From NCBI GenBank assembly GCA_963829925.1, contig CAWHKQ010000015.1:182073-246072 (forward strand): a DNA stretch of 64,000 nucleotides. The letters are read 5' to 3'. The notes beneath the pieces are model-generated. The model did no database searches, was not told the DNA's origin, and saw only the letters and a list, made by a program, of their open reading frames with translations. The stretch's first letter is position 1. Every line of letters begins with the position of its first letter. Positions 638 to 33,444 of the stretch are shown piece by piece. Source of the DNA: an uncultured Acidobacteriota bacterium. GTDB taxonomy: Bacteria > Acidobacteriota > Thermoanaerobaculia > UBA5066 > Gp7-AA6. The position numbers and the translations under genes were made by a program.

Positions 638-1342
638 ATGCGCGCGGTGTTCGCCGACTGCCACGTGGGGCGCCGCCCCGGGGACGAAGGGCCGTTTCTC
701 GAGGCCCTGGAGCAGGCGAGGCAGCGCGGAGCCCGGGCGATCACGCTGCTGGGAGACATCTTCCACTTCTTCATCGCCCACCCGAAGTTCGAGACTCCGG
801 CGATCGCCCGCTTTCTCGAGACCGCGCGGGGGCTGCAGCAGGCCGGCGTGGCGGTCACTTACGTCGAAGGCAACCGGGACTTCTTTCTGCGAGGCTCCTA
901 CGCCGAGAGCGCGTTCCGGGCGGTGTGCGACGAGGAGACATTCGAAGCCGGAGGCCGGCGCTTTCTGGCCACCCACGGCGATCTTCTGAACGAGAAGGAC
1001 AGGCCCTATCGGTTCTGGCGGTTTCTCTCGAAGAATCCGGTTTCGCGCGCGGCTCTGGCCGTCGTCCCGAAGGGGGCCGGCAACCGTCTCGTGTGGAACG
1101 TGGAAGCGCGCCTGTACCGCTCCAATTTCAAGCACAAGACGCGCCTGCCGGTCGAGATGATCCGGAGCTTCGCCGAGAAGCGGTTTCGCCAGGGCATCGA
1201 CGTGCTGCTGCTCGGGCACTTCCACAAGTCCTGGAGAGAAAACGTCGACGGGGGAGTGGTCGAGATCCTCCCGGCCTTCGTCGACGAGCGCCGCTGGATG
1301 GAGATCGGCGGTGACGGGGAGACGAGGCTCGTGGGCCTCTGA
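638..1342 (+). CDS. Calcineurin-like metallophosphoesterase, LpxH-like UDP-2,3-diacylglucosamine pyrophosphatase candidate
   Basis: ATG at 638 inside the long ORF 38..1342. Motifs DCHVG, GDIFHF, GNRDFF, THGD, GHFH fit the LpxH/calcineurin phosphoesterase pattern. The 5' 600 nt of the listed ORF are Arg-rich antisense of the subtilase. Confidence 0.55.
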   Translation: MRAVFADCHVGRRPGDEGPFLEALEQARQRGARAITLLGDIFHFFIAHPKFETPAIARFLETARGLQQAGVAVTYVEGNRDFFLRGSYAESAFRAVCDEETFEAGGRRFLATHGDLLNEKDRPYRFWRFLSKNPVSRAALAVVPKGAGNRLVWNVEARLYRSNFKHKTRLPVEMIRSFAEKRFRQGIDVLLLGHFHKSWRENVDGGVVEILPAFVDERRWMEIGGDGETRLVGL

Positions 1343-1368
1343 ATTCCGAAGCCCGCGATCCTGCACTC

Positions 1369-2643
1369 GTGAGCCACGTCCTGTCGGTGCCGCCCGTCTC
1401 GTCGATCCGCGGCTCCCTGCGGGTTCCTCCTTCCAAGAGCGCCACGAACCGGGCGCTCCTGCTGGCCGCGCTGGCGGAGCGGCCGGTCGAGATCCGTCGA
1501 CCCCTGGCCAGCGACGACACCGTCGCGCTGCAGCGCTGTCTGACGGCGATGGGCGCCTCGATCGAACCCGTCGCGGGCGGGCTCACGGTCTCGGGCCCGC
1601 TCGGCGCGGATTCCAGCCGGACGATCCCTCTCGACGCCGGCGACTCCGGCACGGCGGCCCGCTTTCTGACCGCCGTGTGCTCGGCGATCTCCGGGCGTTT
1701 CCTTCTGACCGGCTCGCATCGTCTTCGGGAACGGCCCATCGCGCCCCTCGTTGAGGCATTGACTGCCGCCGGCGCGCGTATCGCCTATGCCGGAGAGGCG
1801 GGTCGGCTCCCGCTTCGAATCGACGGCGGCGGGCTGCGCTCGGAGCTTCTTCGAGTGGACGCGTCGGAGTCGAGCCAGTACCTCTCGGCCATCCTGCTGG
1901 CAGGCGTCGCGGTGGAGGGCGGGCTCTCCGCCCGCGCGACCGGGGCCGTCGCCTCGCAGCCCTATGTCGCCATGACGCTCGACGCCCTGAGGGCTTTCGG
2001 GCATGACGTCGTCGAGACGGACTCCGTGCGCGTCCGGAGGGGAGCGCTGCATTCCGGTCGATACGAGGTTCCGGGCGACTACTCGTCGGCGGTTCCTCTC
2101 CTCGCCGCCGTCGGCGCCGCCGGGGGCTCGCTGGAGCTGACGGGGCTCGCCTGGCCGTCCCGGGACGCCGATGCGGACGCGATTCCCGTCCTCGAGCGGA
2201 TGGGGATCCGGATCGACGGATTCGCCTCGGCCCTCGTCGCCGCCGCATCGGGCGACTTGCTGCGCCCGGTCTCGGTCGAAGCGACGGGGTTCCCGGACTC
2301 CGTCCCGGCGCTGGCAGCTCTGGCCGCGCTTGCGCCGGGGGAGAGCCGGTTTTTGGGGATCGGTCATCTCCGGCTCAAGGAGAGCGACCGGATCGCCGCT
2401 CTGGCCGGGATCCTGACGGCCGCCGGCGCCTCGGCGACACCCGGGCCCGACAGCCTGACGGTCGTGGGTCCGGCGCGAGTCCGCGGGCTCGTCCGCCTCG
2501 CAACGCACAGCGACCATCGCATCGCCATGGCCGCCGCGCTGCTGTCGCTGCGCCTTCCCGGCCTCCTCATCGAGAACCCCGCCTGCGTTTCCAAGTCCTA
2601 CCCGGCCTTCTTCCGGGACCTGGATTCCGTCTCGGTCCGATAG
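1369..2643 (+). CDS. aroA: 3-phosphoshikimate 1-carboxyvinyltransferase (EPSP synthase)
   Basis: Intact 424-aa ORF. N-terminal LRVPPSKSATNRALLLAALA, C-terminal CVSKSYPAFFRDL, and the HRIAMAAAL motif are typical AroA. Confidence 0.9.
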   Translation: MSHVLSVPPVSSIRGSLRVPPSKSATNRALLLAALAERPVEIRRPLASDDTVALQRCLTAMGASIEPVAGGLTVSGPLGADSSRTIPLDAGDSGTAARFLTAVCSAISGRFLLTGSHRLRERPIAPLVEALTAAGARIAYAGEAGRLPLRIDGGGLRSELLRVDASESSQYLSAILLAGVAVEGGLSARATGAVASQPYVAMTLDALRAFGHDVVETDSVRVRRGALHSGRYEVPGDYSSAVPLLAAVGAAGGSLELTGLAWPSRDADADAIPVLERMGIRIDGFASALVAAASGDLLRPVSVEATGFPDSVPALAALAALAPGESRFLGIGHLRLKESDRIAALAGILTAAGASATPGPDSLTVVGPARVRGLVRLATHSDHRIAMAAALLSLRLPGLLIENPACVSKSYPAFFRDLDSVSVR

Positions 2644-2697
2644 GCCGTCGCCTCCGCTCGCCGGGATCGTGCGGGCGCCGGCCGAAGGCCTGCGGCG

Positions 2698-3006
2698 GCA
2701 CCGGCCTGCGGCTCGCCTGTGGGCTCGACCGCAGGCCTGATCCCTCCCTCGCTGCGGCTCCCGCGGCGCGGGGCTCCTCCCCTGTGGGAGACTCCCCGCG
2801 CCGCGTACACGCCCACCTGTGCCGCTCGCCGACTCTCTCCTAGCTGGGCTCGAGAGCCCGACGCTTTTCGAGGCGCTGGTCGGTATGTACGCGGCGCGCG
2901 GAGTCTCCCGAAGTAACCGAGGGAGGAGCCGGGCGCCGCGGGAGCGAGCGCGCAGCGAAGGATCAGGCCCGCGGTCGAGCCCACAGGCGAGCCGCGGGCC
3001 GGTGCG
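2698..3006. repeat. 309-bp palindromic unit: two ~115-130 bp copies of a GC-rich intergenic repeat in inverted orientation around a 73-bp core
   Basis: The left arm 2698-2812 (gcaccggcctgcggctcgcctgtgggctcgaccgc...gggagactccccgcgccgcgtacac) is the reverse complement of the right arm 2886-3006 (gtacgcggcgcgcggagtctccc...gcggtcgagcccacaggcgagccgcgggccggtgc) at ~85% identity. The outermost ~35 nt are near-perfect inverted repeats. The core 2813-2885 contains a small hairpin, gggctcgagagccc. Confidence 0.7.
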
Positions 3007-3077
3007 CCCGAAGGGCGCAGATCCGTAGCGAAGCGCTCGCGACGGTCGCGACAATAAGGAGACAGAGCCCTAATGAT

Positions 3078-7006
<3,929 letters not shown>

Positions 7007-15060: not shown

Positions 15061-15121
15061 GGATCGCTCGGCTCGGCGTCGGCTCGATAAGTCGGGATCC
15101 CTCGGCCTGCGGCCTCGGGAT

Positions 15122-15149
15122 GACTTCGTGGGGCTCGCCTCACGAAGTC
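15122..15149. promoter_or_regulatory. Perfect 9-bp inverted repeat (GACTTCGTG-N10-CACGAAGTC) overlapping the nrdR stop codon, upstream of hsp20-lon
   Basis: Read directly from the sequence. The stem-loop has no T-tract. It could be a transcript-end hairpin or an HAIR/CIRCE-style heat-shock operator. Confidence 0.3.
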
Positions 15150-15610
15150 ACCTTCTCGCCGCGTCCGATCAGGTTCTTCAGCTCGTGCAGGAACTCGTCG
15201 ACGTCCTCGAACTTGCGATAGACGGAGGCGAAGCGCACGTAGGCGACCTTGTCGAGCTCGCGCAGCCGCTCCATGACGAGGGCGCCGATCCGCGAGGTGG
15301 CGATCTCCCGCTCCTCGGCGTCGTGGAGAAGGGACTCGATCGCGTCGACCACCCGGTCGAGCTCGACGGGCGGCACCGGGCGCTTCTCGCAGGCCTTGAC
15401 GAGCCCGGTTCGCAGCTTGTTCCGGTCGAAACGCTCCCGCCGGCCGTCGTTCTTGACGACCATGTAGGGAATCTCCTCGATCGTCTCGTAGGAGGTGAAG
15501 CGCCGGCCGCAGCCCGTGCACTCCCGCCGCCGGCGGATGACCTCGCCTTCCCGGCTCTCCCGGGAGTCGACGACCCGGTCGTCCCCGGCCGCGCAGAAGG
15601 GGCATTTCAT
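15140..15610 (-). CDS. nrdR: Transcriptional repressor NrdR
   Basis: Intact 156 aa. MKCPFCAAGDDRVVDSRESREGEVIRRRRECTGCGRRFTSYE zinc ribbon plus ATP-cone. Confidence 0.85.
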   Translation of the reverse strand: MKCPFCAAGDDRVVDSRESREGEVIRRRRECTGCGRRFTSYETIEEIPYMVVKNDGRRERFDRNKLRTGLVKACEKRPVPPVELDRVVDAIESLLHDAEEREIATSRIGALVMERLRELDKVAYVRFASVYRKFEDVDEFLHELKNLIGRGEKVTS

Positions 15611-18607: not shown

Positions 18608-18636
18608 CGCCCCGCCGTGAGGCGGGGCGTTTTGTT
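18608..18636 (+). terminator. Rho-independent terminator (cgccccgcc-GTGA-ggcggggcg-TTTTG)
   Basis: 9-bp GC stem, 4-nt loop, T-tract, immediately after the 16889..18577 stop. Confidence 0.75.
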
Positions 18637-18677
18637 GTCCGTCGCTTCCGCTCGTTCGGGACCTGCGGCCTTCGGCC

Positions 18678-18800
18678 GCACCGGCGAGCGGCTCGCCCGG
18701 ATGCGGGCTCGACCGCTCGCCTGGTCCCTCGCTCGCTCTCGCTCCCGCAGCGCGAGGCTCCTCCCTTCGGGAGACTCCTCGCGCTGCGAACGAAGTCCGC
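18678..18800. repeat. Copy C of the GC-rich intergenic repeat, same orientation as the left arm at 2698-2812
   Basis: gcaccggcgagcggctcgcccggatgcgggctcgaccgctcgcctggtccctcgctcgctctcgctcccgcagcgcgaggctcctcccttcgggagactcctcgcgctgcg aligns at ~80% with 2698-2812. Confidence 0.6.
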
Positions 18801-18830: not shown

Positions 18831-20116
18831 GTGACCCCAGAAGACAACGAGCTGCTGACGCGGGTGGGACCGGGCACGCTCATGGGCGATCTGCTGCGGC
18901 AATACTGGCTGCCATTGATGCTCTCGGACGAGCTCGGTGCGCCGGACGGGGCGCCGCGGCGGATGCGGCTGCTCGGCGAGGATCTGGTCGCCTTCCGCGA
19001 TTCGGGGGGGCGCGCGGGTCTTCTGGCGGAGGCGTGCCCGCACCGTCGGGCCTCGCTCTTCTTCGGGCGCAACGAGGAGGGCGGGCTGCGCTGCGTTTAC
19101 CACGGCTGGAAGTTCGACGTGGCGGGGCGCTGCCTCGAGCTTCCGTCCGAGCCGTCCGACAGCCGGCTGCGGGAAGGGGTCCGGGCACGCGCGTACTCCC
19201 TGTCGGGAGCTCAACGGGGTCGTCTGGGCCTACCTGGGGCCCGCGGAGGAGGCTCCGCCCCTGCCCGAGCTCGGTTGGGCTCTGGCGCCGCTCGAGCGGC
19301 GGTCGGCGCGGACGTACGCGCGCGCCTGCAACTGGCTCCAGGCGCTGGAGGGCGATGTCGACACCGTGCATCTGGGCTGGCTGCACGCGCGCCTCGGGCC
19401 GGCCGGCGCGCGTGAGGTGGCTTTCCACGAGGGGGATCGCCTCCGCGACATTGCGGTGCGGGACCGGCGCCCCGTCCTCCAGGTCGTCGATACGCCGGCC
19501 GGACTGAGCATCGGAGCCCGGCGCGACGACGGGGGCGGCGAGCACTACTGGCGTATCTCGCAGTTCCTGATGCCGATCTTCACGAGCGTGCCGGCGATCG
19601 GGCAGCAGCGCCGGGCGAAGGCCTGGGTTCCTCTCGACGACACGCACACCCTCGTGTGGGAGGCCAACTGGTACCCGACCGAAGAGCTCGCGGCCGGGAA
19701 GGACGCGACAGGGGAGCGTCGGACGCCGGAAGAGCGGGATGCTGCCCGATACGGAGGACCCGCTCGAGCGCGGGCGATTCGCGGCGAACTCCGAGAACGA
19801 CTATCGGATCGACCGGGAGCGCCAGCGCACCTCGAATTTCAGCGGGATCGAGGACTCGCCTCCCCTCCAGGACGCGGCCGTCCAGGAGAGCATGGGCCCG
19901 ATCGTCGACCGCTCCGGCGAGCACCTGGTCGCTTCGGACGAAGGCGTCATCCGCGTGCGCCGGCGTCTGCTGGACGCGGCCCGCCGTCTCCGCGACGTTG
20001 GCGAGGAGCCTCCCGGTGTCCGCGCTCCGAGCGCCTACCGATTACGCGGCTGCCAGATGATCCTGCCCCCAGGCGCCGACTGGCAGGAGGCGACCAGGGA
20101 AGAGCAGACGACCTGA
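18831..20116 (+). CDS. Rieske [2Fe-2S] non-heme-iron oxygenase, alpha-subunit-like (VanA/KshA/phthalate-dioxygenase class); frameshifted near 19210 and near 19740
   Basis: MTPEDNELLTRVGPGTLMGDLLRQYWLP. Rieske ligands CPHRRASL...CVYHGWKF. Catalytic-domain motifs NWLQALEGDVDTVHLGWLH and ...HYWRISQFLMPIFTS.... The C-terminus is in the ORF 19739..20116. Confidence 0.7.
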
Positions 20117-20149
20117 GATCCTGCCGCCAAGCGGCTATTTCAGCGGCCC

Positions 20150-20270
20150 TCATCAGCTCGCGGCGGGGGAGCGCTCTCCCGGAGGAGCCGGCCGCGGGAG
20201 CCGAGCGGCGAGGGATCAGGCGAACGGTCGAGCGCGCACCCGCGCGAGCCGTTCAGTGCGCCGCGCCGCA
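20150..20270. repeat. Copy D of the GC-rich intergenic repeat, same orientation as the right arm at 2886-3006 (inverted relative to copy C)
   Basis: cgcggcgggggagcgctctcccggaggagccggccgcgggagccgagcggcgagggatcaggcgaacggtcgagcgcgc aligns with 2886-2998. The outer end (...ggtcgagcgcgcacccgcgcgagccgttcagtgc) is the reverse-complement match of the outer end of copy C. Confidence 0.55.
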
Positions 20271-20292
20271 GTCCGAGCGAGCGGAGGCGACG

Positions 20293-21942
<1,650 letters not shown>

Positions 21943-22017
21943 TCTGGCACGCCGGTCGCCGAAAGTCTCCCCGGACCCCGGAGGGCGGCGTAAAATCGCC
22001 CTGCGAGGGGACAGAAC

Positions 22018-32728: not shown

Positions 32729-32821
32729 CGGGGGGATTGTATGAGAGTCGGGCTCGACGAGTTCGGGATCCCTCGTCTTGCAGGCTCGGGATGACCTGCG
32801 GCGGGCTCCGCCTGCCGCAGG

Positions 32822-33444
32822 TCAGTTTTCGACGATCCGCGTCCCCTTCGGCCCCTGGATCCGGTAGTCGGCGGGGGGCCGCGCCTTTTCGGTCTTCCAG
32901 CCTTCGAACCGGAACTCCGTGCGGTTGCCGGCCGAGTCTTCGTACGAGAGGCCCTCGACCATCCCCGTGGGAGCGACCGCGACCTTCACCCACGCCAGGT
33001 CCGATCCGGGCGCGCGGGGCTTCAGAAGGACGGCCCCCGAGCCGTCGAGCGTGATCTCGTATCGAGCCGCCAGGTCCTCGGGCTTCGTCAGGAAGACGAG
33101 CGGCAGCCGCGCCTGCTCGTCCTCGGACAGCTTTCGTATCGTGAGCTGCTTGTCCTCGGGGGAGAAGAAGCGGCCCTCGCCGGCGTCGTAAGTGAACACC
33201 TTCTTCTCGGGCGCCGTGTAGTCGAAGCGGAGCCGTTGGGGCGCCTGGACCCAGACGCGTGCCGGACTCGCGCCGGGCGCTGGCGAACCCGGCGGGCGTG
33301 TAGATCTGGGTGAACGCCGAAGCGTGAGCCTCACCGTCCCCATAGGCGGCCGCGGCCTCGCGGCGAGTGAGGGCCTGCGGCGTCCGGCGCCTCCTCCCGA
33401 AGCGCGGAAAGAACGGCGAGCACGAGGAGCGCGGCGCGCATCAT
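32822..33444 (-). CDS. lolA: Outer-membrane lipoprotein carrier protein LolA-like; two frameshifts
   Basis: Signal [14 protein letters not shown]. Then, in a second frame, ...[18 protein letters not shown]. Then [40 protein letters not shown]...[21 protein letters not shown]. Confidence 0.6.

Follow-up and report, generated by a model that had tools for sequence, protein, structure and literature searches.

We analysed a 64,000-nucleotide stretch of contig CAWHKQ010000015.1 (positions 182,073 to 246,072), which comes from an uncultured acidobacterium of the class Thermoanaerobaculia and is called the window below, and describe in it a non-coding repeat unit of ~165-180 nt present in four copies, A to D (Table 1). 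A and B face each other between aroA and the gene of a ~1300-aa sigma-54-type activator (AAA_lid_14 and HTH_8 Pfam matches in the window, Sigma54_activat in called orthologs), B ending 32 nt ahead of the GTG at 3078 with which that gene starts. C follows a terminator-like hairpin, beginning 1-2 nt past its T-tract, and stops 36 nt short of the start of a Rieske oxygenase gene (18831). D lies between convergent genes, with its CGTCGCC (20292-20286) directly behind the TAA stop codon (20295-20293) of an S41 peptidase gene. Pfam matches and a reading of the sequence at each copy place all four between genes. No tRNA genes were found in the window.

The original prediction, made from the letters alone, had seen a REP/MITE-like family with four intergenic copies in the window, and had described positions 2698-3006 as a near-perfect palindrome of 309 bp. 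The count is right: a profile hidden Markov model (HMM) and a covariance model (CM; 170 positions, 54 base pairs in 7 helices), run with filters off, both find exactly four copies. Their CM scores are 150, 140, 84 and 57 bits, and the next-best CM matches in the window, of at most 22 bits, come from the opposite strands of these hairpins. Further, the window contains four instances of the core motif CGGCTCGC-N6-10-GCTCGACCG-NNN-GCCTG-N-TCC, against none in 100 shuffles. The inverted repeat is real as well. In self-blastn, the segment 2640-3060 matches its own reverse complement over 2689-3014 (75% over 342 nt, E 9e-58), and it also matches 18639-18791 (77-81%, E 4e-30 to 7e-28) and 20159-20274 (73%, E 2e-10). 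A repeat search returned outer inverted arms at 2689-2749 and 2954-3014, with 89% complementarity, plus two inner arm pairs, of which that at 2786-2823 and 2872-2909 reaches 2823 and 2872, 48 nt apart. The extent and quality of the palindrome had to be revised: the predicted arms stop ~50 nt short at their outer (5') ends, the true structure is a tail-to-tail dimer of A and B of ~403 bp (2644-3046), and the two units are only 72-75% identical overall, with indels.

Table 1. Features of the window at the four repeat units (positions in the window; CM, covariance model; HMM, profile hidden Markov model).
Feature	Position	Strand	Remarks
aroA stop codon TAG	2641..2643	+	EPSP_synthase Pfam match for 1369-2643; unit A starts 1 nt later
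Unit A	2644..2823	+	Core 2644-2812, lineage-specific tail to 2823; CM match 2642-2812, 83.6 bits, E 2e-15; HMM match
Unit A, landmarks	CCGTCGCC at 2645-2652; 3' hairpin end CGCCGCGT at 2808	+	Sequence reading
A-B spacer	2824..2871	.	48 nt between the 3' tails, centre of the tail-to-tail dimer
Unit B, inverted partner of A	2872..3046	-	3046-2883 plus tail to 2872; CM match 3048-2883, 140.4 bits, E 6e-27
Unit B, 5' end	CCGTCGC at 3045-3039	-	Adjoins the conserved TCGCGACAATA leader of the sigma-54 activator gene
Terminator-like hairpin CGCCCCGCC-GTGA-GGCGGGGCG and T-tract	18608..18637	+	3' of Big_7 gene; T-tract 18630-18637
Unit C, best-preserved copy	18636..18795	+	CM match 149.7 bits, E 8e-29
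Unit C, helices	P1 18658-18663 with 18723-18728; P2 hairpin 18664-18680; P3 18683-18721; P4 hairpin 18746-18788	+	
Unit D, degenerate	20152..20296	-	CM match 20296-20152, 57.4 bits, E 4e-10; deletions in P1/P2 and at the P4 apex

Copies outside the window were collected by scanning one genome per species (185,579 species) for a 17-nt core, which gave at least 117 loci; the ~8-kb pieces around the core matches, from contigs of metagenome-assembled genomes (MAGs), are numbered L001 and so on. Among the loci listed, nhmmer with the four window copies found at least 74 matches, at least 49 of them full length, with E-values down to 2e-35, and a refined HMM found at least 87 in 61 sources including the window, with E-values down to 1e-36. 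All HMM-positive loci among the matches listed come from MAGs, dozens of them, labelled Acidobacteriota or Thermoanaerobaculia; the loci from Streptomyces, Microbacterium, Planctomycetota and other organisms are chance matches to the core, with no family member by HMM among the matches listed. The AroA and S41 peptidase of the window have homologs 77-100% identical, the named ones being proteins of Thermoanaerobaculia MAGs. The family is thus, as far as sampled, confined to Thermoanaerobaculia (Acidobacteriota). Within this class it is not limited to the region of the window, and single MAGs carry copies on several contigs (five in LS2_sbin.54, four in GB_EKS_MAG_00015 and three in MFD02809.bin.2.249). 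Since there are four copies in 64 kb, and ~23 further copies, besides the seed copies, in ~450 kb of flanks, hundreds per genome are plausible, but this figure is an extrapolation and unproven. Rfam gave no match at the gathering threshold in the whole window, and on 2600-3100 at E<=10 only noise-level hairpins of miRNA type (E>=0.13). A full-text search of the literature on repeats in Acidobacteria or Thermoanaerobaculia turned up no description of the family, so it can be called undescribed, as predicted. The label REP/MITE-like holds in that this is a dispersed intergenic repeat; the unit is too long and complex for a classical REP, and it lacks the terminal inverted repeats (TIRs) and target-site duplications (TSDs) of a classical MITE (a miniature transposable element with inverted repeats).

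The 5' end of the unit is sharply defined. Counted in 68 copies, it starts at (A/C)C-CGTCGC, with C, G, T, C, G and C each present in 65-68 copies; for the CGTC head the values are 68, 66, 67 and 68 of 68, position by position. The conserved part ends in ...GCGCCGCGA, beyond which only 'RC' and tails specific to subfamilies follow, making the 3' boundary fuzzy. The two ends (5'-CCGTCGCC... and ...GCGCCGCGA-3') are not complementary and all hairpins are internal, so the unit has no TIR.

Between these ends, alignments of 49 and 55 copies reveal a three-way junction with almost no unpaired linker, formed by a closing helix (P1) and two hairpins (P2 and P3), and then a long interrupted hairpin (P4). 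In the structure as we wrote it by hand, P1 pairs GGGAUC with GAUCCC, P2 is a hairpin of variable length, P3 pairs CCGGCnnnCGG with CCGnnnGCC and has a GCC/GGC stem at its apex and an internal loop, UC/UC, that is conserved, and P4 runs from a 12-bp stem through a conserved internal loop (CUC/ACU) to a second stem of 4 bp and a small one at the apex. RNAalifold recovers P2-P4 independently, with 30 pairs of which 18 have compensatory changes. On the 55 copies, the hand-written structure leaves 87.7% of the cells paired, compared with 78.3% in column shuffles and only 32-47% when the partners are slid by 1-3 columns. Both sides of the pair have changed in 32 of the 54 pairs, covering 228 cells, the covariation score is 0.227 against 0.084 in shuffles, and none of 500 shuffles reaches any of five structure measures. 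For instance, position 30-126 in P1 occurs as U-A (35 copies), C-G (11) and G-C (6), and position 87-119 in P3 shows four different Watson-Crick pairs. The minimum-free-energy fold of unit C as a single RNA sequence reproduces P1-P4 (-94.6 kcal/mol, z -5.5), and the A/B dimer, calculated with DNA parameters, folds as one long hairpin (-185 kcal/mol, z -12). The unit is indeed hairpin-prone, as had been predicted from individual stem-loops. However, the pair ggccgaaggcc/ggccttcggcc, taken at the time for a flipped loop, is not one inverted loop but the variable-length hairpin P2 with its covarying stem; this hairpin measures 25 nt in unit A, against 11 positions in the model, as in B. We rejected an outer helix, P0 (the 5' segment with the segment after P1), as a general feature: it is convincing in a few copies (L013, L031 and L001), but no more than 70.8% of the cells pair for the helix that also contains P1, and we treat it as specific to some subfamilies.

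A chance GC-rich palindrome, or a duplicated gene fragment, deserves practically no credence as an explanation. The base composition of the window (69.5% G+C) and the long spurious open reading frames (ORFs) that overlap the region would suit it, but not one shuffle in 100 yields even a single core match, full-length homologs exist in dozens of other genomes, and the variation among copies follows base pairs, not codons. The units are true repeat elements, lying outside ORFs, in both orientations and next to unrelated neighbours, and their differences in length are not multiples of three.

Minor features were seen at both ends of the unit. At the 5' end, the first bases of the element are sometimes duplicated in tandem over 10-16 nt, for example as TAA-ACCGTCGCCA-ACCGTCGCC, in independent subfamilies (L081:5405, L010:7277 and 6138, L067:5358, L115:355, L114:5656 and L116:6159), which points to something that happens repeatedly at the CGTCGC end, for example re-initiation or mis-termination at a nick. 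At the 3' end, a module of ~33 nt, GTACACGCCCACCTGTGCCGCTCGCCGACTCTC, follows P4 of both A and B in the lineage of the window (2808-2840 and 2855-2887). It also stands alone and inverted right behind the aroA stop codon in L119 (5273-5306), and may be an independent small repeat or the remnant of a lost unit.

The unit usually lies flush with the ends of genes. A stop codon occupies positions -5 to -3 of CGTCGC in 30 of 68 copies, against 1-3 per position elsewhere, and at least 24 of these 30 stop codons close long ORFs with coding-type base composition at third codon positions (GC3). With an independent filter for coding-type ORFs, 24 of 73 copies begin -1 to +6 nt from the stop codon of a co-oriented gene. 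The abutted stop codons are TAA in 10 cases, TAG in 10 and TGA in 4, compared with 32, 115 and 206 in other genes of the same loci (Fisher p 7e-5), and filled and empty sites differ in their stop codon (TAG versus TGA at aroA, TAA versus TAG at S41). Positions -4 to -2 are 59-66% A+T with no single invariant word, and CTAA or CTAG is frequent in the 5' flank. Other copies start 1-3 nt past the end of a tRNA-Pro gene (L055:4272-4346) or past the 3' end (CCA) of a tmRNA gene (L043:6056-6415), with the same orientation as these genes, or stand directly behind terminator T-tracts (window C, L013, L031, L037, L090 and L123). The neighbouring gene on the 5' side is on the same strand in 45 cases and on the opposite strand in 20 (p 0.003). 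Inverted neighbour pairs are tail-to-tail in 17 cases and head-to-head in one, with inverted dimers like A/B in L011, L020, L049 and L008. No TSD was found between the 5' and 3' flanks of 59 full copies, nor when the filled and empty sites at aroA and S41 were compared. Two further candidate signals were discarded. A TRR signal at the 3' side turned out to be subfamily tails only (GCTTAG, GCTGAT), without correlation to the 5' flank. Insertion 3' of a hairpin, in the manner of group IIC introns, was rejected for the class of copies at stop codons: since the 40 nt before abutted stop codons fold at -9.8 kcal/mol and those of controls at -11.5 kcal/mol, abutted genes have no stronger hairpins before their stop codons, and structure-guided targeting is unsupported.

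Junctions at the ends of mature or terminated RNAs, namely the tRNA-Pro end, the tmRNA CCA end and terminator T-tracts, would be expected of a retro-mobile structured RNA copied into DNA at RNA 3' ends, and a sharp 5' boundary with a fuzzy 3' boundary would be in keeping with such a process. We nonetheless hold this to be highly improbable, given that the commonest junction is a stop codon and not an RNA 3' end, that no reverse transcriptase was seen near any copy, that there is neither poly-A nor a priming signature, and that the helices carry no mark of the RNA strand (see the pair counts below).

The presence of the unit varies between orthologous sites. The aroA locus has a conserved gene order (S8 peptidase, metallophosphoesterase, aroA, sigma-54 activator), in which the window and L118 (AroA 88% identical) carry both A and B, L119 (86%) carries B only together with the solitary copy of the 33-nt tail, and L120/L121 (77%) carry neither A nor B. 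The empty site in L120/L121 reads TGA-GCGGCGCCC-TCGCGACAATAG and that of the window TAG-G-[A...B]-TCGCGACAATAAG. As for the S41 locus, the window has D, L122 has an intact copy in the corresponding place, and L123 and L124 lack it; C is shared by the window, L122 and L123 and missing from L124. The idea that the element supplies a new stop codon and so truncates the gene was rejected, because the C-termini of AroA and S41 have equal length in filled and empty orthologs, that of AroA being unchanged. The nearest relatives of some copies are found within the same MAG (92-97% in LS2_sbin.54, 93% in cluster3_bin.236 and 89% in GB_EKS_MAG_00015), and in the lineage of the window B of L119, at aroA, is most similar to D of L122, at S41 (87%), although these copies are not orthologous. 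Isolated 5' domains, fragments consisting of P4 only, head-to-tail arrays and nested copies also occur among the loci. The family is therefore multicopy, present or absent at orthologous sites and recently amplified in some genomes, and has no TIR, no TSD and no coding capacity. In L124, where D is absent, the whole 102-nt intergenic region between S41 and Rieske genes is filled by a palindromic unit (...GTCATCCCGAGCGAAGCGAGGGAT..., 5627-5728) related to a second, shorter repeat family of the window (see below); its GGGATCCC / GATCCCTCGCT motif recurs in the main element, in P1 and the segment behind it.

The inverted arrangement of A and B, with 5' ends pointing outward like TIRs, and the recurrence of such tail-to-tail dimers could be taken to mean that the pair is the element and the units its long TIRs, that is, a classical MITE derived by internal deletion from an insertion sequence and moved by a DDE transposase; the frequent CTAA or CTAG in the 5' flank could be added in favour. 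This is very unlikely. Most copies, C and D among them, are solitary, L119 keeps B without A, neither units nor dimers are surrounded by TSDs, the ends of a single unit are not inverted repeats of each other, and no transposase gene lies between the convergent copies of L116 and L010.

Taken as a whole, the data probably describe a DNA element that is non-autonomous, mobile or dispersed, and of the same kind as REP/BIME, ERIC or PATE. It is probably mobilised as single-stranded DNA (ssDNA), a reading which we favour with some reservation. As for the mechanism, we infer that copies would be made by a trans-acting enzyme recognising the folded single strand. The 'peel-and-paste' transposition of HUH/Y1 enzymes (IS200/IS605- or RAYT-like) would fit best, and fits better than a MITE moved by a DDE enzyme, because there are no TIRs or TSDs, both ends are folded, the CGTC is invariant, the stems are constrained symmetrically and inverted dimers occur. 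The element would insert just 3' of short A/T-rich signals, in a defined orientation and with no duplication of the target, and in a genome of 70% GC such patches would largely be TAA and TAG stop codons, terminator T-tracts and the spacers after tRNA and tmRNA genes; selection would then remove insertions inside genes. Since most copies come to stand directly behind a gene and in its orientation, the gene's transcript would include them as a very stable structure in the 3' untranslated region (3'-UTR), and tail-to-tail dimers would form a giant hairpin. By analogy with REP/BIME, these folds could protect the 3' ends of mRNAs as a buffer or act as insulators between neighbouring genes.

Several observations weigh against this reading of the unit as a mobile DNA element. 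No mobilising enzyme was found in the 1.14 Mb made up of the window and all loci: tblastn with four Y1 queries, one of which is a genuine PF01797/RayT-like sequence, returned nothing there, a six-frame search of the same 1.14 Mb with an HMM from 80 RayT proteins gave no PF01797-like ORF at E<=1, and none of the RayT matches listed is labelled Thermoanaerobaculia. The ORFs between convergent copies (L116 and L010) are housekeeping genes (PLD, HAD and citrate synthase), with no transposase among them. Nor was the family seen in plasmids or viral contigs: the segment 2640-3060 had no match in plasmids (PLSDB) with blastn in distant mode, and of 15 loci with the 17-nt core in viral contigs (IMG/VR) none fits the CM, all being chance matches. 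The 5' flank has no fixed tetranucleotide of the IS200/IS605 type, only an A/T-rich triplet, and no known end recognised by a transposase is as elaborate as the three-way junction. The copies of the window are only 67-76% alike, so no recent burst is apparent in this genome. In addition, two orthologous copies are better kept than 4-fold synonymous sites, C being 0.80 identical between the window and L123 (0.59 at 4-fold sites) and B 0.78 between the window and L119 (0.65), which hints at selection on individual copies or at gene conversion. Finally, a function as RNA would likewise be in keeping with the preferred orientation of the copies and with their place flush behind genes.

The last two points belong to another explanation, in which the unit is a functional cis-acting structured RNA (a 3'-UTR stabiliser, a signal for 3'-end processing or termination, or an insulator) kept by selection and spread by duplication. 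We regard it as possible, though doubtful. The covariation in four helices with conserved internal loops, the strong fold (z -5.5), the sense orientation behind genes (45:20), the tail-to-tail pairs between genes and the junctions flush with stop codons and with tRNA-Pro and tmRNA ends would all follow from it, and so would the conservation of C and B just described. However, P1-P4 contain 41 G·U and 41 A·C among 2419 cells. In an RNA under selection, G·U is normally much better tolerated than A·C, so these equal counts bear no signature of an RNA strand, and the constraint looks symmetric between strands, DNA-like, or limited to 'master' copies. Equal numbers are to be expected from transitions in copies that decay neutrally after insertion, compensated variants arising in lineages that are still being copied. 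Moreover, some copies lie after an intrinsic terminator (C, L013, L031, L037 and L123) or antisense before a gene (B), so that an upstream transcript would not include them in sense. In a genome whose S41 protein is 98% identical to that of the window, C and D differ by large indels and are 0.70-0.73 identical, compared with 0.87 at 4-fold sites. Orthologous sites can be empty, and the preference for TAA and TAG over TGA points to a DNA sequence as the target rather than to any gene end. The unit is not an intrinsic terminator, because no U-tract follows P4: there is no T-run at +1 to +24, where the 3' flank reads RC... An RNA role and a mobile origin could also both be true in part, in analogy to REP/BIME, with a selfish origin and a structure that matters once transcribed.

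An unlikely but broader reading is that the unit would be more than selfish DNA, namely a modular 'gene-end' device of RNA or ssDNA, shared by the whole class and put in place flush with stop codons and with tRNA and tmRNA 3' ends by some process able to recognise where functional transcription units end. Its three-way junction and the conserved internal loop of P4 would bind a dedicated protein, encoded by the host or by an element, and the process might be a new kind of end-targeting mobilisation of HUH or retro type, or a new signal coupled to 3'-end processing or to termination by the ribosome.

Returning to the reading as a mobile DNA element, we compared the family with known systems; it is a new family of a known general kind, which works like REP/BIME/REPIN, ERIC, BOX or PATE and is a member of none. 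With the REP/BIME/REPIN elements of Proteobacteria, which are associated with RAYT, it shares being multicopy, GC-rich, extragenic and hairpin-forming without TIR or TSD, lying mostly downstream of coding regions between unidirectional or convergent genes, and occurring as singletons, inverted dimers and clusters. REP units have a conserved unpaired tetranucleotide head, GTAG or CGTC, and head-to-head dimers predominate among them (PMC3733652). The 5' unpaired CGTC of our unit, near-invariant in the 68 copies and a putative cleavage site, corresponds to the head of CGTC-tagged REPs (PMC3733652), and the family also resembles the 'orphan' CGTC-headed REPs, for which no transposase is known and mobilisation is unresolved (PMC3733652). 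It differs from REP and REPIN in its ~165 nt with a three-way junction and a long hairpin, compared with a single stem of 20-40 nt in REP, in its dimers, almost always tail-to-tail (17 versus 1), in that no RAYT was found near any sampled copy, and in its phylum.

PATEs, which derive from IS200/IS605, likewise have no TIR or TSD and are folded close to both ends. An insertion directly 3' of a short unduplicated target, with a bias in strand or orientation, would be as in PATEs and 'peel-and-paste' transposition, and a stem constraint symmetric between strands is as in an ssDNA mechanism. Unlike in PATEs, the target is only an A/T-rich triplet (enriched in TAA/TAG) where PATEs use a fixed tetra- or pentanucleotide, the window and loci yielded no cognate TnpA or TnpB, and the 5' domain is a three-way junction instead of a simple subterminal hairpin. 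ERIC/IRU, BOX, RUP and Correia (NEMIS) elements, of 100-200 nt in Enterobacteria, pneumococci and Neisseria, are similar in size, non-coding and stably folded, are often co-transcribed with their neighbours, and vary in copy number and presence between strains in the same way. They have no sequence similarity to our family, though, and the Thermoanaerobaculia family lacks the TIRs and TA-type duplications of Correia and RUP. To our knowledge, none of ERIC, BOX, RUP or Correia has been reported flush with stop codons or with tRNA and tmRNA ends. Group II introns of class C (IIC) insert just 3' of intrinsic terminators, and the several copies directly behind a terminator T-tract are alike in this targeting only; the unit contains no intron RNA domain and no reverse transcriptase ORF, and at stop codons there is no hairpin-guided targeting.

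Thermoanaerobaculia are abundant Acidobacteria of soils and sediments, known almost only from MAGs, and in the literature we found no description of their non-coding repertoire. An elaborate three-way-junction fold supported by covariation and kept across a bacterial class, with junctions flush with gene ends, is of specialist interest. The CM is ready to annotate what may be hundreds of loci per genome, which gene callers otherwise cover with spurious ORFs. Orthologous sites in filled and empty states offer a natural marker of genome dynamics at strain level. The precise junctions (0-2 nt past TAA/TAG, or directly past the ends of tRNA-Pro, tmRNA and terminators), without duplication, make the family a good system for the mobilisation of TIR-less repeats. 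Once present in transcripts, if they are transcribed at all, the fold of 165 nt (-95 kcal/mol) and the dimer hairpin of 400 nt should influence how stable mRNA 3' ends are, as well as operon polarity, at many genes.

Some further observations concern the surroundings of the units. The leader TCGCGACAATA-N-AGACAGAG at 3047-3078, between B and the sigma-54 activator gene, is kept in L119:5527-5557 and L121:5283-5321, with the repeat dimer present or not, and is probably the ribosome-binding site or regulatory region of that gene. A second, shorter repeat family consists of TCGGGATCCCTCG-N-CTCGGGATGAC followed by a hairpin specific to each copy; its copies in the window, at 15092-15150 and 32763-32823, are flush against the TGA stop codon of minus-strand genes, whose ORFs end at 15140 and 32822. 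Between C and D, the gene of a Rieske/LigXa-like oxygenase (18831-20116) is split in two frames, with the Rieske domain in 18831-19415 and the LigXa_C domain in 19571-20116; its orthologs in L122 and L124 are single ORFs of 387-410 aa, and L123 has no such gene at all. From the sequence, the split may be a frameshift, a pseudogene or an assembly error. Finally, long spurious ORFs on both strands dominate mechanical ORF lists of this GC-rich window, and some overlap the repeat units (for example 1006-3054 and 2598-3851 on the minus strand and 18937-21993 on the plus strand), so that automated annotation could mis-call the units as coding.

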